In this document: piece by piece, positions 4,333-43,912 of the stretch
How the letters are laid out: every line of letters starts with the position of its first letter
Position numbering within the stretch: the stretch's first letter is position 1
Origin: Nitrosospira multiformis
GTDB lineage: Bacteria > Pseudomonadota > Gammaproteobacteria > Burkholderiales > Nitrosomonadaceae
Length of the DNA stretch: 64,000 bases
Assembly (NCBI GenBank): GCA_017306155.1
Contig: JAFKJB010000016.1
Location: forward strand, 17,382 to 81,381
Direction: 5' to 3'
Translations under genes and position numbers: made by a program
Notes under the pieces: generated by a model
The model's database searches: none
Seen by the model: only the letters and a program-made list of their open reading frames with translations
Told to the model about the DNA's origin: nothing

Positions 4333-5310
4333 TTAAGCCTTCCGCCCGATGTCGCGCGCCTGCCCAATGCGGCGCATCAGGGCGATGCCGTGAGCGCCGT
4401 GTTCCCAGGCAATAGCGAGATCTTCGCTCCCCAGTCCACCCAGCGCATATACAGGAATGGAGCTGCCGTGGATGAGTCTGGCAAACTTCCGCCAGCCCAA
4501 TGCGGGAGAATCAGGGTGGCTCGATGTCGGCAGTACGGGAGCCAGAACGGCAAAATCCATTTCCAGTTGCCCGGCCCGGAAAAGCTCCTCGGCATTATGG
4601 CAGGAGGCTCCGCACCATTCCACATCGGGTCGTTTCGAAAGATGCATCAGATCAGCCGATGTAAAATGGATTCCATCCATGCCGAATTCATGACAGAGGC
4701 TGGCGTTACCCGTACCGCTGTTCACGAGGATGCGGGCGCCATAATGATGGGCCAGTGCGGTCACTTCACGGGTAAAGGAATCCAGCGCTTTACCCTGAAT
4801 TCCTTTTTCGCGTAGCTGCAGCAGCCGCAGTCCTTTCTGGAGAGCGTGTTCGATTCGGGCTGCTGCAACCTTTGGTCCCCACTCCGTGGCATTCGTAATC
4901 CCATAAACGGGGGGTAGATGAAGTGCATGCAATACGGGTGCGTTGGCAGGAAGCAACGGCTCGACAGAGACATTGTCCGCAAGCTGCCACGACAGCTCCT
5001 GGTCTTCATACGGATGAGGCTCGCCATGCCACTCCAGCACGCGATAAAAATGAAGCCGTACAGTTGCATGAGGGTAGGTAAATGCACGGACTATCCAGGG
5101 GTAAGCATGTTTGACATGTATGCCCAATTCCTCCAGCAGCTCGCGCTTGAGTGCGTGCAGCAATGGCTCGCCCGGGTTGACCTTTCCGCCCGGAAACTCC
5201 CAGTAGCCGGCATAGGGCTTTCCTTCCGGCCGGCGGGCTAAAAGAAAGGAACCATCATTCCGGGTGATGATGGCGGCAGCAACTTCCACGACAGAGGGAA
5301 CAGGAGGCAT
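4333..5310 (-). CDS. MutT-like Nudix hydrolase fused to a thiamine-phosphate-synthase-like domain
   Basis: WEFPGGKVNPGE...RELLEELG Nudix box; C-terminal QLREK, GASCH, PVYALGG ThiE-like motifs. Confidence 0.88.
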   Translation of the reverse strand: MPPVPSVVEVAAAIITRNDGSFLLARRPEGKPYAGYWEFPGGKVNPGEPLLHALKRELLEELGIHVKHAYPWIVRAFTYPHATVRLHFYRVLEWHGEPHPYEDQELSWQLADNVSVEPLLPANAPVLHALHLPPVYGITNATEWGPKVAAARIEHALQKGLRLLQLREKGIQGKALDSFTREVTALAHHYGARILVNSGTGNASLCHEFGMDGIHFTSADLMHLSKRPDVEWCGASCHNAEELFRAGQLEMDFAVLAPVLPTSSHPDSPALGWRKFARLIHGSSIPVYALGGLGSEDLAIAWEHGAHGIALMRRIGQARDIGRKA

Positions 5311-34094: not shown

Positions 34095-34967
34095 TCAAAT
34101 CTCTTCTTCATCCTCCGTATCCTTCGGGGGATTCCCGTCATGCACCAGACTCCGCCGTCTCTGGAGGTAGGCATCACGGATAAACTCGTACTTGTCGAGC
34201 GAAGCTTCTTCCAGAGTCTTCTCGGATTTGAGGAATTCGGCGCGAGTATCTGTAACCCTGGTGGAACCCACTATCGGGCCTATAAAGGGTGCCACGAAAA
34301 AGCTGCCTACAAAAACAGGGTCGGTCACGGTGTCGATGACGCGCCCGCCTGCATCCCGCGCTGAACTGGGTCCGAGGAAGGGCAATACGACATAAGGCCC
34401 GCTTGCGACTCCATAATAGCCCAGGGTTTGCCCAAAATCTTCATTGTGCTTTTCAAACCCGATGCCGCTCGCCAGATCCACGATCCCGGCCAGGCCTAAA
34501 GTGCTGTTCACTACGAACCGGGTGCTGCTGGTGAGTGCATTATTGAATTTAAGCTGCAGAAGGTTGTTCAGCGTGATCGGTATGTCACCGAGGTTCGAGA
34601 ACACGTTTCCCACCGCTGTTTCGAGGGGGTCGGGCATTATCCATCTATAACCCTTTGCGATCGGCCTCATTACATAGTCATCAACCGATTCATTGAATGA
34701 AAATATCTTGCGGTTGACGGGTTCCCACGGATCTTTTTTACTGTAGGGCGGATAACTGGCAGGCGGGGCTGCGTTTTTGAATACGGGTCCCTCGATTGCT
34801 TCTGTTTGCCTGTTGTCATCAACAGAAGCGGTTTTGGCGGTCGAGGCATTCTTCTCTGCGGAGATGCTTCCCTCAGCTGCAGTGTCATTGGCCATGGCTA
34901 CACCGTTAAGGAGATATCCAAGAAGTAACGGCAATAATAGAGGAGAAGGTTTGACGAAGCGTGCCAT
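34095..34967 (-). CDS. mlaA: MlaA/VacJ-family protein lacking a lipobox
   Basis: DPWEPVNR..F.FN, RFVVNSTLGLAG, EDFGQTLG, GPYVVLPFLGPSSARD, DKYEFIRDAYLQRR. Confidence 0.92.
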   Translation of the reverse strand: MARFVKPSPLLLPLLLGYLLNGVAMANDTAAEGSISAEKNASTAKTASVDDNRQTEAIEGPVFKNAAPPASYPPYSKKDPWEPVNRKIFSFNESVDDYVMRPIAKGYRWIMPDPLETAVGNVFSNLGDIPITLNNLLQLKFNNALTSSTRFVVNSTLGLAGIVDLASGIGFEKHNEDFGQTLGYYGVASGPYVVLPFLGPSSARDAGGRVIDTVTDPVFVGSFFVAPFIGPIVGSTRVTDTRAEFLKSEKTLEEASLDKYEFIRDAYLQRRRSLVHDGNPPKDTEDEEEI

Positions 34968-35253
34968 AGTCAAGGTGAATCCTGAGATTAACAGGGAATA
35001 CTTTTCGCCATTATATATGATATAAGGTCAATTTCAAGCAAGAAAACACTTTTTTCTCGCCCCAATCGAGCGGCTTTTTCTGGTATGTTTATTTTTGCTT
35101 CTCCGCTTTACGACGCAGTTTTCGCGATCTTAAGGCTATCTTCTCCACTCTTTTTCCGGCTTGGCGGAAGAGCAACCAAGCCAAAGTTCAGGTAAATGCA
35201 TCCGCGGCATTTGGGGCAGGCCGAAAAGCGCTCGTGTATTCGACCACAATATT

Positions 35254-35925
35254 ATGCGTATCCTGATTATCGAAGATGAGGACAAGACCGTTTCTTTTCT
35301 CAAAAAGGGATTAACCGAATCGGGTTATATCGTCGATGCCTCGATGAATGGCGATGAGGGACTGCTTCTGGCTCTCGACATCGATTATGATTTGATCATT
35401 CTGGACGTAATGCTGCCCGGTCGCGATGGCTGGTCCATTCTCTCGACGCTGCGCCAGATGGGAAAAGAGATGCCGGTGCTTTTCCTCACCGCCAGGGACA
35501 TGGTGCAAGACCGGGTCAAGGGGCTGGAGCTCGGGGCAGATGACTATCTGATCAAGCCTTTTGCATTTTCAGAATTGCTGGCCAGAGTTCGCCTGCTGTT
35601 GCGGCGTACCCCCCAGAGACATCATGACACCTTGCAAATTGCTGATCTGGAGATTGAATTCGCGCGCCAGAAGGCAGTTCGCGGCGGCAATCGCCTCGAT
35701 CTGACGTCCAAGGAATTCGCGCTTCTGTCGCTGCTCATGCGGCGTTCTGGAGAGGTTTTATCCCGGACCTTGATCGCGGAGCAAATCTGGGATATCAATT
35801 TCGACAGTGATACCAATGTCATCGATGTGGCGATACGCCGACTACGCGGCAAGATAGACGATCCATTCGAAAAGAAACTGATCCATACGGTGCGTGGCGT
35901 AGGGTACGTGTTTGAAGATCGATAG
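35254..35925 (+). CDS. Heavy-metal response regulator (CusR/CzcR/CopR-like, OmpR family)
   Basis: LDVMLP receiver, [39 protein letters not shown]; start at ATG 35254. Confidence 0.9.
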
Positions 35926-37330
35926 CCCGCGGAGGGTCGCATCCACATCCAGTCATTCGCACTGGTCGATCACCAGGCAATTGACCTGGCTTTATGCGTT
36001 ATCGGCCTCCGTCATGCTCATCTTCGCTTCAGGATTCCTTTATTGGATTCTCATCACGACACTGGAAAAAGAAGATGAGCAGTTTTTCGACAGACGGATC
36101 AAGTTTCTCGGGCGCCTCTTGCGGGCAGACGATCGGGAAGCCCTGGAACGTGAAATTTCCCAGGAAAATGTCGGATTTACCAACTCCCAGTATCGTACCT
36201 ACAGCCGTATTCTTGATGAATCCGGGATCACTCTTCATGAGACTCCGGGAATGGATCTGGAGACTCCCTCCGCTGTATTTCCCGACTCGCGCGAGTCGAA
36301 AGGCAAGATAAAGAAATGGTATTCTGCTGACGATAAAACCTATTTGCTGGTTGCCAACCGGATAGGAGGCGATGGTTTCGGCTGGCAGATCCAGATGGCA
36401 CTGGATGAGACAGACGAAGAGGTGCTGATCACCCGGTACGAGCACTATTTGGCCGGTGTGCTGTTAACCGGCATTCTGGTATCTGCAGCCATTGGAGCCA
36501 TCATCGCGCGGCGCGGCATGAAGCCCCTGGTAGATATTACCGGAGTTGCTGAACGCATCACGGCCAGCCAGTTACATGAGCGCATCGATGTCGTGCCGTG
36601 GCCTCAGGAACTGGTGTCGCTGGCACGCGCATTCGATGCGATGCTCGATCGGCTGGAAGATTCGTTTGATCGCCTTTTCCAGTTTTCGGCTGATCTGGCG
36701 CATGAGTTGCGCACTCCGATCAATAACCTGCGGGGAGAAGCCGAAGTGGCCCTTTCCAGGCCCCGGGAGGCTCATGAATACCGCGAGATACTTGCATCGA
36801 GTCTCGAGGAGTACGATCGCCTGTCGCGCATGATGGACAGCCTGCTATTCCTGGCCAGGGCCGATAATGCGCAGGCCATGGTTACCCGCAGCCGGATCGA
36901 TGCACGCACGGAAATCACGAAAGTCATCAATTTTTACGAAGCACTGGCTGCGAAACAGAAGGTTCAAGTAACATGCATGGGAGATGGGATGATGGATGCT
37001 GATCCGATTCTTTTTCGAAGAATCATCAGTAACCTGCTTTCAAATGCCCTGCATTACACTCCAGGGGGAGGTGAAATTGCTTTCTCCATCCAATATGTCG
37101 ACGGCGGGCTCGAGGTTGTCTGTCGCGACAGTGGAGAAGGAATCGCGCAGGAACATCTATCGAAAATATTTGATCGCTTTTATCGGGTCAATCCTTCCCG
37201 TAATACGAAAGAAGGCGCGGGACTCGGATTGGCTATCGTAAAATCCATCATCAGTCTTCACAGTGGCAGGATCGGTGTACAAAGCACTATTGGCCAAGGC
37301 ACGTCCATACGGCTTTTCTTTCCGACATAA
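35912..37330 (+). CDS. Heavy-metal sensor histidine kinase (CusS/CzcS-like)
   Basis: Two TMs, [38 protein letters not shown]. Confidence 0.9.
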
Positions 37331-37432
37331 CATCCGTCATAGCCTTCGGTAGTTCTGCTGTAATCAGCTTGTCAACAGGGGATTTTGCATCACTCAATCC
37401 CTGTCGGCTTCAACCCTCAACCGCTTCCTGAA

Positions 37433-37488
37433 CATTACAGATTTGTAATGCCGCCGACATCATTCTGTCAGGATTCCCTTTTTATAAT
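37433..37488 (+). promoter_or_regulatory. Cus/Czc/Cop-type box plus -10 element (promoter copy 1)
   Basis: Palindrome CATTACA-GATT-TGTAATG (ATTAC-N6-GTAAT); TATAAT at 37483-37488. Confidence 0.75.
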
Positions 37489-37539
37489 CTCCGCCTATAA
37501 CCATTAGAATATTGTGGGAATCCAGCGGAGGAAGTCGAG

Positions 37540-37734
37540 GTGACGTTGTTGTCCATCAAGGCACTGCTAGGTGCTGCTGTGATAATCATCAGCTTAGCAA
37601 CTGATTTATTCCACCATTCGTCCGCATTATCAATCGCTCCATCAACCTCATCTTCGTCCATGGCTCAGGAATGTAAACCTCACGTTTCATTTTATTTTGT
37701 TATAAGCAATCTGCATGATCCTCATGCCTACTAA
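37540..37734 (+). CDS. Putative 64-aa small protein (signal-peptide-like N-terminus) or remnant
   Basis: GTG with GGAGG 9 nt upstream, directly after promoter copy 1; no recognised family. Confidence 0.35.
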   Translation: MTLLSIKALLGAAVIIISLATDLFHHSSALSIAPSTSSSSMAQECKPHVSFYFVISNLHDPHAY

Positions 37735-37902
37735 CCGGAGCCTCGAAGCCTATGGCATCAGCAAGATCCCTCTCTATTTTTTCTCCCGCAACGAAGCAGC
37801 AAAGACGGGAAAATTTTGATAATTATTGGGAATTTACCCAGCAACATGGGGGGCAGGCCGCCGATTATTGCAATGCATTACGGAGGGCGGTGAAAATCGC
37901 CA

Positions 37903-39270
37903 GTGACCTTGATTATTGACAGAATAACCCGGGATTTGAGCGGTGCGGCGTGGATCTTCACCCGGTTGCCGAACGACGGTTCGGCGGCAATGTACATCCA
38001 CCGCTGCATTCAGCGCGAGGTCTGGAGCAAGGAAATACTCGGCGATCGGATCATCATGCGCGCGGCGTTGCCGTTCGTGCCGTTCATGCTTGCTGTGCTG
38101 GTAGCGGCTTTCACAGCGATCAATGGTCCCGCTATCAAGAAGCGGACGGGGAAAGGACTGATCCGGCAGATCCGGGAGCAGATCGGGCTTGCGATACGCT
38201 TTGCGATTCCATCTCCGTGGTATTACATTTTCGAACTGCATGACGATGACAAGAGACTGCGCGCAGGGGAGTATCTGAACCGGTTAGAGACGAAAGGGGG
38301 GCTCTATCGCTTCCTGCGCGATAACAATGGTGGCCTCCCTGTTCCTGCGGAACGCAGTACCGGCTCCATAAAGGATAAGATGCGCTTCAGGGTCCGCTGT
38401 CGCGAGCACAGGATCGCGACTGCTCCCGTTTTTTTTTATATCGCCCAGGAAAAGGTTACGGCGGTAGATTGGAGTTCGTCGGAGCCATCGGCACTGCCCG
38501 AATTACCCGAGTGCGATCTTTTCATAAAACCGGTGCACGGTCAGGGCGGGAAAAAGGCCACCCGGTGGGAATATATCGGTTCCGGGCACTTTCGTGGCAA
38601 CGACGGCGGGGTTGCTACCGGAAGTCAAGTGCTGGAGCGGCTGCGGCATGCCTCGCGACACGGGGCTTTCCTCGTGCAGCCGCGGCTTGTGAGTCATCAT
38701 GAGATTGCCGATCTGGCCAGCGGGATACTTTCCACCGTTCGCGTGATGACATGCCGTAACGAAAAGGGGGGGGTCGAAGTGACCAATGCGGCTTTTCGCA
38801 TGGCGCGAAACAAGCGGGTCGTCGTCGATAACTTTCACGCCGGGGGTATTGCCGCCAATGTCGACATTTCCACCGGTACGCTGGGAAGGGGCACGCGCGG
38901 GGCCTGGGGAGCCACAGCTGACGGATGGTATGAGCAACATCCAGAAACCGGGATTCAGATCCAGAATCGCAAGCTGCCGTACTGGGTTGAGTTGATCGAT
39001 CTGGTGCAATATGCGCATGGCGTCGCCTTTTCCGACCAGGTTGTCATCGGATGGGATGTTGCACTGCTCGACAGTGGTCCGTGCATCATGGAAGCCAACA
39101 AGGCGCCCGATCTGGACATTATCCAGCGGGTGGAAGGCATGCCCCTGGGCAATCAGCGACTGGGAAGACTTCTGGCATTCAATCTGATGCGTACCGTCGA
39201 GGCGCAGCAAGCCCTTGCAGTCGGCGCTCGAAAGAGTACCGATCAGCCTTCTGGCATTACAGATTTGTAA
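37903..39270 (+). CDS. Sugar-transfer-associated ATP-grasp protein (start uncertain)
   Basis: IKDK, FIKPVHGQGG, FLVQPRL, STVRVMT, DNFHAGGI, HPETG, GWDVALLDSGPCIMEAN. Confidence 0.8.
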   Translation: MTLIIDRITRDLSGAAWIFTRLPNDGSAAMYIHRCIQREVWSKEILGDRIIMRAALPFVPFMLAVLVAAFTAINGPAIKKRTGKGLIRQIREQIGLAIRFAIPSPWYYIFELHDDDKRLRAGEYLNRLETKGGLYRFLRDNNGGLPVPAERSTGSIKDKMRFRVRCREHRIATAPVFFYIAQEKVTAVDWSSSEPSALPELPECDLFIKPVHGQGGKKATRWEYIGSGHFRGNDGGVATGSQVLERLRHASRHGAFLVQPRLVSHHEIADLASGILSTVRVMTCRNEKGGVEVTNAAFRMARNKRVVVDNFHAGGIAANVDISTGTLGRGTRGAWGATADGWYEQHPETGIQIQNRKLPYWVELIDLVQYAHGVAFSDQVVIGWDVALLDSGPCIMEANKAPDLDIIQRVEGMPLGNQRLGRLLAFNLMRTVEAQQALAVGARKSTDQPSGITDL

Positions 39271-39310
39271 TCCTTGCGACATCATTATGTCAGAATCGCC
39301 TTCTTATACT
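39255..39310 (+). promoter_or_regulatory. Cus/Czc/Cop-type box plus -10 element (promoter copy 2)
   Basis: Same 17-mer CATTACAGATTTGTAAT; TATACT at the same offset; 46/56 ungapped identity to copy 1. Confidence 0.72.
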
Positions 39311-39588
39311 TTTGATGGCTATTAAAAACACGATAACCGATATCGGATATATGCTCCTGGAATTTGAATTGCAATGGAAGGAGTTGGTGTAACGGTATCT
39401 CCGAGCCTCGAAGCAGTTCGCCTTAATGCACTGATCGCTATCGCCTGCGATTAGATTTTTCTGCTTGAGAAGATCGACTATGTCTGCTTGAAGATAACTT
39501 GACAGAAACCTGATTCCTGGCTTGATTCACAGAGAAATTGTGTCGATCAATCGCACCATTCCCGTCACACGAGTAAACAAAATATAAA

Positions 39589-40497
39589 ATGGCCATAGCT
39601 TCTTTCGCCAACCAAGCCAATGTTCCCGATATTGTTCCATCACCGTCGTTTCAGATTGTTGAAGATTCATTAAAAAGATTTTCACTGCCATGTTTTCACG
39701 ATCCCGAACGAGTCGAGGAATATGTTGATTTATTTTCTCTGCGAACGTTGTGTAAAGCATTGGAAGCAGATCGAGCAGAGAGTAAAAACTCTGCGCTCGA
39801 AAAATCTGTCTCTCCGTTTGAGGAAGCGCCCTTTGAACCGAAGTATGATGATTTGTGCCGCCTTCACTGGATCGCGTTAAATCGTAAAGTCATCAACATT
39901 CTCGAGCTTGGCAGCGGTTATAGTACAGTGGTCCTTGCTGATGCGATGCGCATACTTAAAAAACACTTCGGTAACTGGGCCAGGAAATCCATACGTAGCG
40001 ACAATCCCTTTCATGTGTATGCCGTGGAAGAAGAGCAGCGTTTCCTGGAAATCACCAAATTAAGGCTCGGGTCAAAACTTAAAACGCTTGCCACTGTTTC
40101 GCGCAGCTCTGTCGATGTTCTGATTCACGACAATAGGATCGCAAGCGCATATTCAAAACTGCCCAACATATCCCCCGATTTTGTTTATCTCGATGGCCCT
40201 TCCCAGTTCGCTACTACGCAGGAAATAAACGGGTTCTCGTTTAATAGCAAAGCAAGAATGCCAATGTCCGCAGATATTCTGCGAATTGAGTTTTTTTTAG
40301 AACCGGGCACGCTTATTCTGATGGACGGCAGAACTGCTAACGCTCGTTTCTTGAAATCTTATCTACGTCGAAACTGGGCCTACCTGCATGACCCGATCGG
40401 AGATATTCATTGCTTTGAACTGCAGGAAGAACCGCTTGGACCTTTTAATAGGCTGAAGCTTGAATTCTGCCTAAATGGAAACTGGCTTATCAGCTAA
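39589..40497 (+). CDS. Class I SAM-methyltransferase-like protein
   Basis: ILELGSGYST, DFVYLDGP, PGTLILMDGR; AT-richer than flanks. Confidence 0.6.
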   Translation: MAIASFANQANVPDIVPSPSFQIVEDSLKRFSLPCFHDPERVEEYVDLFSLRTLCKALEADRAESKNSALEKSVSPFEEAPFEPKYDDLCRLHWIALNRKVINILELGSGYSTVVLADAMRILKKHFGNWARKSIRSDNPFHVYAVEEEQRFLEITKLRLGSKLKTLATVSRSSVDVLIHDNRIASAYSKLPNISPDFVYLDGPSQFATTQEINGFSFNSKARMPMSADILRIEFFLEPGTLILMDGRTANARFLKSYLRRNWAYLHDPIGDIHCFELQEEPLGPFNRLKLEFCLNGNWLIS

Positions 40498-40507
40498 ATC
40501 ATCCACT

Positions 40508-41908
40508 ATGAGAAATTCCGCTTCAACCCTCATTATCCCTGTCGAAAATCAGGTGCGCGAGCTGGACGGAAAGCTTCTGCTGTCCTGTGTAGCTGCAGAG
40601 CGCGGCTTTCCGGTGATTATTGGTTCACGTGCGTTCATTCATTTCGAGGCGGCGTCATTTCCACGGGGTGTGTACTTGGCGAAGAGCATGCGCAGTCTGA
40701 GCAATTCGATGTTCAGGATTCTGCGCATGCTGGGGCATGAGATTGTGGCATGGGAAGAAGAGGCGTTGGTTCATCCCCCGGCCGAAACCTATTTCAACCT
40801 GCGGCTGTCACCGACGACGATCAGTAATGTGTCCCACATATTCGCCTGGGGTTATGAGAACTTCGATTTGCTCCAGCAATATCCGCAACTGCCCAAAAAA
40901 CTATCTATTCACATTACTGGAAATCCACGCGGAGATATATTGCGGCCAGAAATGCGACCCTACTTCGACGCGGAGGTAGAAAAACTCCATAAACTTTATG
41001 GGGATTTCATTCTTGTTAATACCAATTTCACCGAGGTAAATCCCTTTATTCCCAGTATTGGCTTATTCGTTCCAACAAAAGACGGGCATAAGACGTCCCG
41101 ACGTGGTCAAGCCGGAATTGGAGTGAGCCGTGAATTTGCCGAAGGACTCTGGAATCATAAACAAGCAATACTGGAAGATTTCAAGCAGCTCATTCCGGCC
41201 CTCGAGCAGGCTTTCCCCCATCTGATGATCGTAGTCCGGCCGCATCCAAGTGAAAATTTCAAGGTGTACAACGATATTGCCGCAAGATGCAAGCGGGTCA
41301 AAGTCATTAATGAAGGCAACGTTATTCCCTGGCTTCTGGCTTCGAAGACAATGATACATAACGGGTGTACAACGGGCTTGGAGGCGTATGCGCTTGGGGT
41401 ACCGGCCATATCATATCTTTCCACATTCAATGAATTCTATGATTATGACTTCCAGGGCCTTCCCACCAAGCTAAGTTATCAGTCTTTCAATTTTGAAGAA
41501 TTACAGAACACTTTGACTGGAATTCTTGAGGGTAAGCTCGGTCCCCCCGGAGGTGAGGAACGCAAGACGCTCATCGATTACTATCTGGCGGCCCGGAATG
41601 AGCGTCTGGCTTGCGAGCGTATTGTCGATATCCTCGAGGATAGCGGCTATGCTGAAAACCAGCCACCCGCCACATCCGTGGGAACATATGCCCAAGGATG
41701 GGCGTTCGCGAAGTTAAAGGCTTCTATCACGAAACTGAACATGCGGCGTCCCGGCCCGAACAGGCTTTCATATCACGATCATCGTTTTCCCCAGCTCTCT
41801 GCCACGGAGATTGAGAAGAAAATTGCACAGTTTGGTCGCCTATTGAATCGTTTCGGCAATATTCGCGTTGAACAATACTCAAAACATCTATTCAGAATCC
41901 ATGGTTAG
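40508..41908 (+). CDS. Surface carbohydrate biosynthesis protein (GT-B-like)
   Basis: PVENQVRELDGKLLL, ITGNPRGDILR, VVRPHPSE, IHNGCTTGLEA; start at ATG 40508. Confidence 0.7.
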   Translation: MRNSASTLIIPVENQVRELDGKLLLSCVAAERGFPVIIGSRAFIHFEAASFPRGVYLAKSMRSLSNSMFRILRMLGHEIVAWEEEALVHPPAETYFNLRLSPTTISNVSHIFAWGYENFDLLQQYPQLPKKLSIHITGNPRGDILRPEMRPYFDAEVEKLHKLYGDFILVNTNFTEVNPFIPSIGLFVPTKDGHKTSRRGQAGIGVSREFAEGLWNHKQAILEDFKQLIPALEQAFPHLMIVVRPHPSENFKVYNDIAARCKRVKVINEGNVIPWLLASKTMIHNGCTTGLEAYALGVPAISYLSTFNEFYDYDFQGLPTKLSYQSFNFEELQNTLTGILEGKLGPPGGEERKTLIDYYLAARNERLACERIVDILEDSGYAENQPPATSVGTYAQGWAFAKLKASITKLNMRRPGPNRLSYHDHRFPQLSATEIEKKIAQFGRLLNRFGNIRVEQYSKHLFRIHG

Positions 41909-42050
41909 CGGCTCTCTAAAGCGTGCCCTTGGCATTCTTTTCAAAAAATTTTTCTAATCTCCATGAGGGTAGGAGCCCCAGCCAATGAGTGCGTGAACTT
42001 GATATTTATCGAGTTGAGCCAGGGATAAAATTATGTAGAATCCCATCCAT

Positions 42051-42106
42051 GGCAGTCGCTTCGATCTGACATCCAAAGAATTCAATTTCTATCGCTGTTC
42101 ATGCGG
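42051..42106 (+). pseudogene. 56-bp relic of the heavy-metal response regulator gene
   Basis: Manual alignment to 35686-35742: 47/57 identical with one gap. Confidence 0.75.
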
Positions 42107-42190
42107 GTGCACGGAACCCTGCTGAATTGAATTTATCCACGGATCAAAGAACGGGACTTCCGGATGAAGTCTGAGAGACTGCTGTTTTTC

Positions 42191-43726
42191 CTATGCAGCG
42201 CGCCGGGAGAAATCCTTGAGGCGAAAACCGAGCAGCCATAAGGTGACAAAGTAGCTTGCCGCACCGATTGTCACGACTCCTGCCAGGCGTATCCCTCGCA
42301 CTGCCGCCGTATCCGTCAGCCACGAAACATCAGTGCCCGAAGCAAACCATAATATAGTCCCCATCATCGCCAGGGCCACCGATATCTTGGTCATAAAAAT
42401 GCCCCATCCCGGTTGAGGCCGGTAAATCTGGTGGCGCCGTAATTTGTAATAGAGCATGCCCGCATTGATACAGGCGCCCAGTCCAATGGCAAGCGCCAAC
42501 CCGGCGTGTTGCAGCGGTATGATAAAGGCGAGGTTCATCAACTGGGTTGCGATAAGTGTGATAAGGGCTATTTTTACCGGTGTCTTGATGTTTTGCCTTG
42601 CGTAGAAACCAGGTGCCAGCACTTTCACCAGAATCAGCCCCAGCAGGCCCACGCTGTATGCCATGAGGGCATTGCGTGTCATCCAGACATCGTTGGCCGA
42701 GAATTCGCCGTGATGAAACAGTGTCGTGATAAGCGGTGTGGCAAGCAGCGCCAGCGCCAGCGCTGCGGGCAGTGTCAGCAGCATGGTCAGGCGCAGACCC
42801 CAGTCAAGCAGTCGGGAATATTCATCCGTGCTGTTGTCGGCATAGTGTCGCGACAAGGACGGCAGCAGGACCGTCCCGAGTGCCACACCCAGCAGGCCGG
42901 CGGGAAACTCCATTAACCGATCCGCATAATAGAGCCAGGAAACGCTGCCTGTGACAAGAAAGGAAGCAAATATCGTATTGATCAACAGGCTGATCTGCCC
43001 GATGGACATGCCGAAAACTGCTGGTACCATTTGCTTGAGAACGCGCGACGCGCCATTGTCGGGGGATTTCAGGCGTGGGCGCGGCATCAATTTGAGGCGC
43101 ATGAGGAACGGTATCTGGAAGGCAAGCTGGAGTACGCCGCCGATGAATACCGCCCACGCCAGCGCCAGTACTGGGGGGTCCATGAGTGGCGCCAGCCATA
43201 GCGAACAGCCGATAAACGACAGGTTGAGCAGGGCCGGGGTCAGCGCAGGTACCGAAAATCTGCTCCAGGTGTTGAGTATGCCGCCAGCCAGCGACACGAG
43301 CGAGATGAACAGGATATAGGGAAACGTGATCCGCAGCAGTTCCACCGTAAGCTCGAATTTCTCGGGACTTGCCGTGAATCCTGGTGCACTTACATAGATG
43401 ACCAGCGGCGCCGCAATAACGCCTGCCAGCGTGACCCCGAATAGCGCAATGAACAGCAGTGTTGCGACGTGACTTATCAGTTCGCGCGTATCTTCGGCGG
43501 CGCGGCGATTCTTGTATTCGGCAAGTATGGGTACGAAGGCTTGCGAAAACGCTCCCTCGGCGAACAGACGGCGCAACAGGTTGGGGATGCGGAATGCCAC
43601 AAAAAAAGCGTCGGTTTCGACGCCCGCGCCAAAAATACGGGCAATGATGGCATCCCGCACAAATCCCAGAATGCGGGATATGAACGTCATCCCGCTGACG
43701 GTGACAAGGGCTTTGAGCAGATTCAT
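42191..43726 (-). CDS. murJ: Lipid II flippase MurJ
   Basis: SRILGFVRD, FRIPNLLRRLFAEGAFSQAFVP, YYADRLMEFP; start at ATG 43726. Confidence 0.97.
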   Translation of the reverse strand: MNLLKALVTVSGMTFISRILGFVRDAIIARIFGAGVETDAFFVAFRIPNLLRRLFAEGAFSQAFVPILAEYKNRRAAEDTRELISHVATLLFIALFGVTLAGVIAAPLVIYVSAPGFTASPEKFELTVELLRITFPYILFISLVSLAGGILNTWSRFSVPALTPALLNLSFIGCSLWLAPLMDPPVLALAWAVFIGGVLQLAFQIPFLMRLKLMPRPRLKSPDNGASRVLKQMVPAVFGMSIGQISLLINTIFASFLVTGSVSWLYYADRLMEFPAGLLGVALGTVLLPSLSRHYADNSTDEYSRLLDWGLRLTMLLTLPAALALALLATPLITTLFHHGEFSANDVWMTRNALMAYSVGLLGLILVKVLAPGFYARQNIKTPVKIALITLIATQLMNLAFIIPLQHAGLALAIGLGACINAGMLYYKLRRHQIYRPQPGWGIFMTKISVALAMMGTILWFASGTDVSWLTDTAAVRGIRLAGVVTIGAASYFVTLWLLGFRLKDFSRRAA

Positions 43727-43912
43727 GGATGCGTATGTTAACTGAATATTTGAGGTTTGGGGTTGCTCCACCATTATTGACCCGGCCAGAGAATATTATC
43801 AATTCCGTCATTCGGGGACTGATCCGGAATCCAGAAAATCGGCTTGCTGAAGGAATCAAATCGGTACAAGCGCCGCGATGGTTGGCAACAACAGATAGAA
43901 TTGTCAGTTTTC

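Follow-up and report, generated by a model that had tools for sequence, protein, structure and literature searches.

In a 64,000-nucleotide stretch of the Nitrosospira multiformis genome (GenBank assembly GCA_017306155.1, contig JAFKJB010000016.1, positions 17,382 to 81,381 of the forward strand; hereafter the window, whose numbering is used unless a contig is named), we found a two-component system (TCS) of the CusR/HprR family, composed of a response regulator (RR) and a sensor histidine kinase (HK), and, directly downstream, two promoters with a CusR/HprR-type operator box that stand before an ATP-grasp gene and a pair of glycan-related genes. What is new here is a real, recurrent, and compact accessory envelope/glycan regulon under a CusR/HprR-type regulator, the family and the type of box being already known. 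We propose that this is a Nitrosospira module, acquired horizontally or from within the genome, in which a TCS of the family has passed from the control of metal efflux to that of an envelope-remodeling regulon, and we consider this reading likely. The regulator, the kinase, the promoters in the window, and the four predicted units of the regulon are the following, where C16 and similar labels denote contigs.

35254..35925, plus strand: RR of the CusR/HprR family with an OmpR-type winged helix (TIGR01387)
35912..37330, plus strand: HK with two transmembrane segments, a periplasmic part (~55-185), and HAMP, HisKA, and HATPase_c domains (TIGR01386)
37433..37489, plus strand: box promoter 1, CATTACAGATTTGTAATG followed by the hexamers CGACAT and TGTCAG and then by TATAAT (weight-matrix score, 83 bits)
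39255..39311, plus strand: box promoter 2, which overlaps the stop codon of the ATP-grasp gene (weight-matrix score, 82 bits)
37903..39270, plus strand: predicted unit 1, behind box promoter 1, an ATP-grasp ligase of the PF14397 "sugar-transfer associated" family (121 bits), the regulated paralogue
39589-41908, plus strand: predicted unit 2, behind box promoter 2, composed of the next two genes
39589..40497, plus strand: protein with an S-adenosylmethionine-dependent methyltransferase fold (MT-like), 302 amino acids (aa), single copy (weak match to PF13578, Methyltransf_24)
40508..41908, plus strand: TIGR04396 "surface carbohydrate biosynthesis protein" of GT-B fold, single copy (428 bits)
C16, with its box promoter at C16:110996: predicted unit 3, an MlaA paralogue (mlaA2) and unk295, a 295-aa protein
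C16: predicted unit 4, a FemAB/GNAT-like protein (PF13480/PF04339) and a 138-aa EamA-type protein

Regulator, kinase, and box promoters

In a hidden Markov model (HMM) scan, the RR reached 344 bits against TIGR01387, "heavy metal response regulator" (cut-off, 279.2), and the HK reached 408 bits against TIGR01386 (cut-off, 292.55). By score, both proteins thus fall into the heavy-metal (CusRS/CopRS/CzcRS) subfamily, which bears out the CusRS/CzcRS-like pair that a first-pass annotation of this DNA had claimed, and each is the sole member of its subfamily above the cut-off in the 3.0-Mb genome. The RR is 60% identical to Escherichia coli CusR and 57% identical to HprR, and its recognition helix is near-identical to those of the two proteins. 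It scored equally against the HprR and CusR models, with 298 bits each, and reached neither of the equivalog cut-offs (353 bits for HprR, NF008567). The scores against the PmrA model (198 bits; cut-off, 330) and the PmrB model (117 bits; cut-off, 314) place the pair outside PmrAB.

The two box promoters of the window form a 54-nt direct repeat (37433-37486 and 39255-39308, 83% identical), the core of which, ATTACAGATTTGTAAT, has four matches when both strands are counted, against 0.26 expected and with none of 100 shuffles reaching four. The E. coli hiuH-hprR intergenic region contains an experimentally used "CusR and HprR box," CATTACAAAATTGTAATG (PMC9302797), and box 1, CATTACAGATTTGTAATG, is identical to it at 16 of 18 positions; the half-sites and the 4-bp spacing are the same, so that the two operators differ in two spacer bases only. 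By sequence match, a CusR/HprR/CopR-type operator, with inverted ATTACA/TGTAAT-like half-sites, is present at four promoters of the genome.

Alignment of 14 promoters from six genomes, this genome's own four included, yielded the consensus cATTACAgATTTGTAATgnctncGaCAtCnTtgcGTCAGaATccCcTnnnTATAnT, in which four hexamers (ATTACA, TGTAAT, cGACAt, and cGTCAG) are phased at 10 to 11 bp. Since the −10 element is conserved and a −35 element is not recognizable, the promoter is of the type expected for activator dependence, and the center of the palindrome would lie near −53 of the putative transcription start. When the genome was scanned with the 57-nt weight matrix, four full promoters scored 74 to 84 bits and everything else scored 15 bits or less; as the matrix was built from promoters that include these four, their high scores are partly built in, and the informative part is the gap to the rest. 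A fifth, weaker box (C11:21288) lies within a gene and is devoid of a −10 element, and we rejected it as probably due to chance.

In this genome, we found no box before the RR gene that would point to autoregulation. In another Nitrosospira genome (G009), a different palindrome, CTGACACGCATTACAATTAATGTGTCAG, is located upstream of the RR gene (L058, ~4570-4600) and may be an autoregulatory site; nothing comparable precedes the RR gene of the window. An Rfam search of positions 34900-42300 gave no match, and a consensus scan for terminators and promoters did no better than shuffles. A terminator-like hairpin followed by a T-run (window 39431-39464) lies within the 280-nt leader that separates box 2 from the start codon of the MT-like gene; it could be an attenuator, or else a chance occurrence given that the scan did not rise above shuffles.

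The first-pass annotation had also remarked that the pair is not followed by metal efflux genes, and indeed the block around it contains no resistance-nodulation-division (RND) pump, P-type ATPase, or multicopper oxidase. The genome does have metal genes elsewhere, namely, a cusCBA/cusF-like operon at C8:24-29 kb (CusA, 52% identical), a CopA-type ATPase gene, and a multicopper-oxidase-like gene (the latter two on C5), and the whole-genome weight-matrix scan revealed no box at any of them. The pair therefore neither adjoins RND, P1B-ATPase, or multicopper oxidase genes nor appears to control them here, and the view of a Cus/Czc-type pair whose boxes stand at glycan and envelope genes, not at metal genes, holds genome-wide. 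As to the targets on C16, the EamA-type protein of unit 4 gave its best NCBIfam matches with ArnF and ArnE, subunits of the undecaprenyl-phosphate-aminoarabinose flippase, both below cut-off (55 vs 99 bits). The 3-Mb genome carries four MlaA paralogues (C23, window 34095-34973; C10:108614-109393; C22:13975-14787; C16:111639-112697), among which only the C16 copy stands behind a box.

Recurrence in Nitrosospira and the glycan context of the targets

We then looked into the distribution of the system in 43 Nitrosospira genomes, of which 28 were good (≥90% complete). Orthologues of the kinase (65-77% identity) were found in 9 of the 43 genomes, with one broken and one split across contigs, and the extended box was found in 10, together with the kinase in 7. 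The box was thus present in 7/9 kinase-bearing and 3/34 kinase-free genomes. Among the good genomes, it was present in all 7 kinase-bearing ones and in 1 of the 21 others (Fisher p = 7e-6, a statistic that ignores phylogeny), and the single kinase-free good genome with a box owes it to a weak, mismatched match. Intact RR and HK genes are found in this genome and in at least six further species, the amino-acid identities being 87-89% for RR orthologues and 71-77% for HK orthologues. The FemAB-like target occurs in 5/43 genomes, all of which have the TCS or boxes, and in 0/31 genomes that lack both; in two cases (G000 and G009), it is carried on a different contig from the TCS.

The genes behind the boxes recur as well, and the combination is therefore not unique to this strain, a possibility that the first-pass annotation had raised with the suggestion to check other genomes; we found recurrent orders in G009, G041, G010, G052, and G045. 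In G009 and G041, the order is RR-HK-box-MT-like-(472-aa BFO_1060-like glycosyltransferase)-TIGR04396. G010 and G052 have RR-HK-box-GlpM-MT-like-CMP-transferase-GFO oxidoreductase-short-chain dehydrogenase/reductase, with TIGR04396-NeuB-CMP-synthetase/HAD divergent from the RR gene, and G017 has RR-HK-box-SRPBCC protein-FemAB-EamA. Boxes in G009, G041, and G045 head MlaA2-unk295, FemAB-EamA, DUF1232-P297, and GlpM-ATP-grasp, the box-GlpM-ATP-grasp order being that of G045. Because this promoter precedes the same few gene families across species and loci, we regard this as the signature of a regulon. In G033, the box leads to small open reading frames (ORFs) without a Pfam match, which offer no hint as to the signal.

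Two further observations concern the relatives of the system. The P297 family (297-305 aa; C17:18068-18958, L071 12713-13630, and L072 8400-9293) has no Pfam or NCBIfam match; its members are box-associated in G009 and G041, and the present genome has a box-less one downstream of a folE-like gene. By MlaA identity, G015 is among the four closest genomes, and it alone of these shows a trace of the system: on a contig of 2184 bases (C71, L055), a TGA stop or a frameshift interrupts the kinase gene, and the GlpM leader gene is disrupted. This remnant on a tiny contig suggests that the system may be in the course of being lost in the clade.

We next consider the genes of units 1 and 2. The ATP-grasp ligase is 86% identical to its orthologue in N. 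multiformis Nl12, and a second paralogue (62% identical) is located at C16:49726-51030, in a KdoO/O-antigen-ligase cluster. Relatives of the ligase in N. multiformis, other Nitrosospira, Nitrosovibrio, and Nitrosomonas mark the organism as a Nitrosospira. Nitrosospira and Nitrosovibrio carry two to three paralogues of this PF14397 family per genome, sometimes in tandem (L006, L007, L011, L013, and L015-L023), and the family, which also occurs in metagenome-assembled genomes labeled Nitrospira/Nitrospirales and Acidoferrum, seems to be enriched in nitrifiers. The MT-like protein belongs to a conserved methyltransferase-fold family of ~940 members with an invariant EFGSGFST motif, and its AlphaFold model (pLDDT 80) had cation-dependent class-I O-methyltransferases as top Foldseek matches (E ~1e-6, with modest TM scores of 0.39/0.51). 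The TIGR04396 gene likely starts at M12 of a 477-codon ORF that begins at 40475, a start supported by the length of its homologues, which are 466 aa. Its model (pLDDT 87) shows a two-Rossmann GT-B fold and matched UDP-sugar 2-epimerases, TagF, and a capsule polymerase (E 1e-9 to 1e-7). The pair of an MT-like and a surface-carbohydrate gene that had been noted behind the box is thus in place (39589-40497 and 40475/40508-41908), and in this genome both genes are confined to the island. A PDB sequence search gave no usable match for the ATP-grasp, MT-like, or TIGR04396 proteins, and a literature search returned nothing specific on TIGR04396 or on nonulosonic acids in Nitrosomonas. The G+C content over the MT-like and TIGR04396 genes (window 39000-42000) is 0.445-0.48, against 0.53-0.58 in the flanks, which is consistent with a foreign or glycan-island origin.

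Functional context comes from Nitrosomonas, where we found the operon ATP-grasp-(KdoO)-PLD-TIGR04396-NeuB-CMP-synthetase/HAD-Wzy_C, whose other products are a Kdo hydroxylase, a PLD-like protein, a short NeuB-family synthase, a CMP-synthetase/HAD-phosphatase fusion, and an O-antigen-ligase-like protein. Its ATP-grasp (61-62% identical) and TIGR04396 (71-73% identical) proteins are close to those encoded here, and this genome has the genes of that pathway as well, at C16:40.4-52.4 kb, with an intact NeuB gene at C16:41599-42477. Unlike in the Nitrosomonas operon, the ATP-grasp, MT-like, and TIGR04396 genes are here split from the pathway genes and placed behind predicted TCS-dependent promoters at an unrelated site. 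A homologue of the MT-like protein (62%) is embedded in an Alteromonas NeuB/NeuC/CMP-synthetase nonulosonic-acid cluster. Clustering of these three genes with NeuB and CMP-synthetase thus recurs in Nitrosomonas, in G010/G052, and in Alteromonas, which by context makes them putative accessory enzymes of that pathway.

In the circuit that we infer from these data, a periplasmic signal would cause the kinase to phosphorylate the RR, which would bind the 16-bp palindrome ATTACA-N4-TGTAAT, ~53 bp upstream of the inferred transcription start, at promoters without a −35 element. The RR would thereby activate, rather than repress, the four units: the ATP-grasp gene; the MT-like and TIGR04396 genes; the MlaA paralogue with unk295; and the FemAB/GNAT-like gene with the ArnE/F-like one. 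By context, units 1 and 2 would act on a lipopolysaccharide (LPS) or surface glycan containing ulosonic or nonulosonic acids. The CMP-sugar pathway genes at C16:40-52 kb (NeuB, CMP-synthetase/HAD phosphatase, KdoO, PLD-like, and O-antigen-ligase-like) would stay unregulated, and the TCS would conditionally supply the transfer and tailoring steps, i.e., GT-B transfer, O-methylation, and ATP-dependent amide ligation. For units 3 and 4, we would expect a change in the handling of outer-membrane lipids, through the extra MlaA, and the addition of an amino-acyl-type substituent, with an ArnE/F-like flippase component.

Signal sensed by the kinase

The sensor domain of the HK is conserved among Nitrosospira orthologues and is strongly acidic (motifs LEKEDEQ and ALDETxEE). 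In CusS and CopS, two invariant His residues and a Phe residue at the interface bind Cu(I)/Ag(I) (CusS H42/F43/H176; CopS H41/F42/H140) (PMC7763554). Our alignment showed that these His/Phe/His ligands are missing from the HK sensor domain, the HF after the first transmembrane segment being deleted or replaced (TLEKEDEQ), and that the Met/His loop of CusS is deleted. No His or Cys residue of the periplasmic domain is conserved across the HK orthologues, and no conserved His precedes the second transmembrane segment. The residues Met72/Met73 and Met153 of HprS are not conserved in the HK, in which ILD replaces MMD at the aligned position. A PDB sequence search with the periplasmic domain gave no detectable match, though the PDB includes the CusS sensor 5KU5 (cited in PMC7763554). 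Among the nearest homologues outside the genus, the one in G019 is found in the order RR-HK-MFP-RND-MFP-RND (MFP, membrane fusion protein), and its sensor domain aligns with that of the HK and is also devoid of the His/Phe pair; the RR-HK pair in G022 lies beside genes for a cytochrome c and a multicopper oxidase.

The first-pass annotation had proposed a metal-responsive system, in which Cu, Zn, Cd, or Ag, sensed by the kinase, would induce a glycan decoration that chelates or excludes the metal, making a PmrAB/ColRS-like circuit out of a Cus/Czc-type regulator. We regard this as possible and retain it tentatively. Ammonia oxidizers depend on copper, the pair belongs to the heavy-metal subfamily, its nearest homologues outside the genus stand in canonical metal surroundings (the RND genes of G019 and the multicopper oxidase gene of G022), and the sensor domain is both conserved and rich in acidic motifs. 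On the other hand, the kinase has neither the CusS/CopS interface His and Phe residues (PMC7763554) nor the CusS Met/His loop nor any conserved His or Cys, the metal pumps of the genome are devoid of the box, HprS is a member of the same family that senses HOCl and not metal, and nothing indicates that the product binds metal. A literature search returned nothing specific on a Nitrosospira copper two-component system. Taken by itself, a metal cation as the signal is a serious candidate, though one that falls somewhat short of probable. More doubtful is the larger picture of a Cus/Czc-type metal sensor replugged from efflux to surface chemistry, in which a cation would remodel the surface instead of being pumped out and which would constitute an independent analogue of PmrAB.

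The same regulon might instead respond to an oxidant or to general envelope stress, as does E. coli HprRS, a sensor of HOCl/H2O2, and this we consider unlikely. HprRS switches on periplasmic repair genes via the same box, and several features fit such a role: the box here is essentially the HprR/CusR box, the RR scores as well on the HprR as on the CusR model, the sensor has no His ligands, as in HprS, and the targets all have envelope functions. Ammonia oxidizers also generate reactive nitrogen and oxygen species. However, the marks of HprRS proper are not found: the RR falls short of the HprR equivalog cut-off (298 vs 353 bits), the sensing methionines Met72/Met73 and Met153 are not conserved, and the hiuH-msrPQ target is missing, as tblastn of the genome revealed no MsrP, MsrQ, or HiuH homologue. 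An oxidant is not a likely signal, and the remaining weight goes to another signal, e.g., another envelope stress.

Insertion, recombination scars, and significance

The genes of the window stand in a block that was inserted between two conserved neighbors and that contains remnants of other genes, as follows.

34095-34973: mlaA, upstream of the block, with htpX
35134..42190, no strand assigned: inserted 7.05-kb accessory block between mlaA and murJ (homology break and empty site)
37540..37734, plus strand: "small ORF" of 64 codons, a relic chimera of a GlpM 5′ end and a P297 leader
37684..37857, plus strand: P297 relic, the leader and first 35 codons, a near-identical copy of the genome's own 297-aa gene at C17:18068-18958
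42051..42106, plus strand: remnant of an RR gene at the right edge of the block, with 33 nt 88% identical to 35686-35718 in the same orientation
42191-43774, minus strand: murJ, convergent

Homology with the three closest TCS-less Nitrosospira genomes ends at 35133-35141 and resumes at 42191, in MurJ (96-97% identical), and htpX, mlaA, and murJ follow one another without interruption in 28/28 other good Nitrosospira genomes, carriers of the TCS elsewhere among them. Since homology stops and resumes at the edges of 35134-42190 and the flanks are contiguous in all these genomes, the block is an insertion, which took the place of a spacer of ~310 nt. The first-pass annotation had placed the system next to murJ; the adjacency is real and is that of an insertion site, empty in 28/28 genomes, not a conserved association. 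We thus ruled out murJ as a functional partner, and the adjacency to murJ and mlaA has no functional meaning.

The block also bears the scars of recombination. The small ORF was identified as a relic by tblastn and by DNA comparison with G010, G015, G045, and the genome's own C17:19089-18854: its ribosome-binding site (RBS) and first ~20 codons come from a GlpM-family gene (intact in G010, with 116 aa and 134 bits against PF06942), and its 3′ part corresponds to a P297-family leader. The P297 relic appears as a 55-codon ORF (37752-37919), of which the 35 P297 codons cover 37752-37857 and residues 36-55 match DNA that is natively upstream of the Nl12 ATP-grasp gene (L002 442-501), so that a recombination junction lies near 37857. 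At the other end of the ATP-grasp gene, the last ~8 codons and the stop codon derive from box-2 DNA. The leader behind box 2 (39309-39588) has kept the GlpM RBS, which runs straight into GTG-TAA, and we conclude that a GlpM gene was deleted there. On C16, the box at C16:110996 is separated from the mlaA paralogue by a NeuB remnant (the first ~100 codons; C16:111375-111666, L001 8376-8667), and behind the other box only 58 codons are left of the GlpM gene. All box-associated GlpM genes are degraded in this genome (a stub at 37540-37600, a start-stop at 39380-39392, and a truncation at C16:115885-116061), and intact copies of 113-116 aa lead the same operons in G010, G041, and G045. The ancestral cassette would evidently have had the order box, leader, glpM-like gene, and cargo, and recombination has shuffled cargo behind the cassettes here, with the two promoter copies flanking the ATP-grasp gene in direct orientation.

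It had been suggested, as an alternative, that glycan genes captured the promoters of a decaying metal-resistance locus. Capture is supported by the scars and by the splicing of the ATP-grasp gene behind a box, and decay is contradicted by the intact RR, HK, and cargo ORFs. The box and the ATP-grasp gene that it heads stand as first described, and the small ORF between them loses its standing as a conserved gene. A stronger form, which we find improbable, would make the whole a decaying or selfish mosaic, in which the promoter cassette was copied by recombination, the glycan genes came to lie behind it by accident, and the TCS is heading for loss in the lineage. It would account for the four kinds of relics that adjoin boxes (GlpM, P297, NeuB, and RR fragments), for the box promoters that flank the ATP-grasp gene as direct repeats, for the degradation of every GlpM copy in this genome, and for a TCS that is patchy (9/43) and broken in G015. 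It sits poorly, however, with an RR and an HK intact in this and at least six other species, with target families that recur behind boxes in different species and loci, with the strict coinheritance of the FemAB-like target and the system, and with intact target ORFs. A graspetide-like ribosomally synthesized and posttranslationally modified peptide or a metallophore peptide system, for which the 64-codon ORF with its good Shine-Dalgarno sequence, its place directly 3′ of the box and upstream of the ATP-grasp gene, and the His and Cys residues of its peptide might speak, is effectively refuted, as this ORF joins a GlpM 5′ end to another gene's leader, has an in-frame stop in the homologous G015 DNA, and is missing upstream of ATP-grasp orthologues at 40+ loci, where a conserved precursor would be expected, and as the ATP-grasp protein is of the PF14397 family, found in Nitrosomonas within LPS/ulosonic-acid operons.

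Several points weigh against the reading that we prefer, that of a TCS rewired to an envelope-remodeling regulon. The co-occurrence of box and kinase is partly trivial, as one box always adjoins the kinase gene, and it ignores phylogeny. The conservation of the 57-nt promoter beyond the palindrome could reflect recent copying of the cassette and not selection at each site, and the GlpM, P297, NeuB, and RR relics mark the units as products of recombination. Regulation of the ATP-grasp gene, which is preceded by ~400 nt of junk leader, may be inefficient. Lastly, PF14397 and TIGR04396 are uncharacterized families, and the 295-aa, 297-aa, and 472-aa proteins have no assigned function.

Compared with known systems, the TCS is closest to E. 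coli CusRS and HprRS (YedVW/HypVW), with which it shares the HMM subfamily, an RR 57-60% identical, the recognition helix, and the half-sites of the operator, and HprRS provides a precedent for a member of the family that controls an envelope-protection operon and not metal efflux. Unlike these systems, the present one is missing the Cu(I) ligands of CusS/CopS and the sensing methionines of HprS, stays below the equivalog cut-offs, has glycan and outer-membrane genes as targets in place of cusCFBA, pco, and hiuH-msrPQ, and is accessory, with ~1 in 5 Nitrosospira species carrying it. The proposed logic, in which a TCS that senses the periplasm controls LPS-decorating enzymes, is that of PmrAB (BasRS), ColRS, and related metal-responsive LPS-modification regulons, and an ArnE/F-like protein is among the targets here. 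In contrast to PmrAB and ColRS, the system belongs to a different TCS subfamily, comes without arnBCADT or eptA, and would employ other, uncharacterized enzymes (PF14397, TIGR04396, and FemAB-like). We thus view the resemblance to PmrAB as a functional analogy only.

If our proposal is true, a "heavy-metal" family has been rewired to envelope and glycan genes, and the program under its control would comprise the transfer, methylation, and amidation of an ulosonic-acid glycan, aminoacyl decoration, and MlaA-type lipid handling. With four promoters and a large score gap, the regulon is compact enough to make a CusR/HprR-family regulator outside the enterics directly testable, and it would put widespread uncharacterized families (PF14397, the TIGR04396 GT-B proteins, and the MT-like proteins) into a defined inducible context in which their products could be identified. 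It also calls for caution in annotation, as the label "heavy metal sensor kinase" does not imply metal resistance here. Members of Nitrosospira, which hold a key place among soil nitrifiers, require copper and are readily harmed by metals and oxidants, and a conditional surface-remodeling switch present in some species only could explain strain differences in stress tolerance, aggregation, or phage susceptibility.

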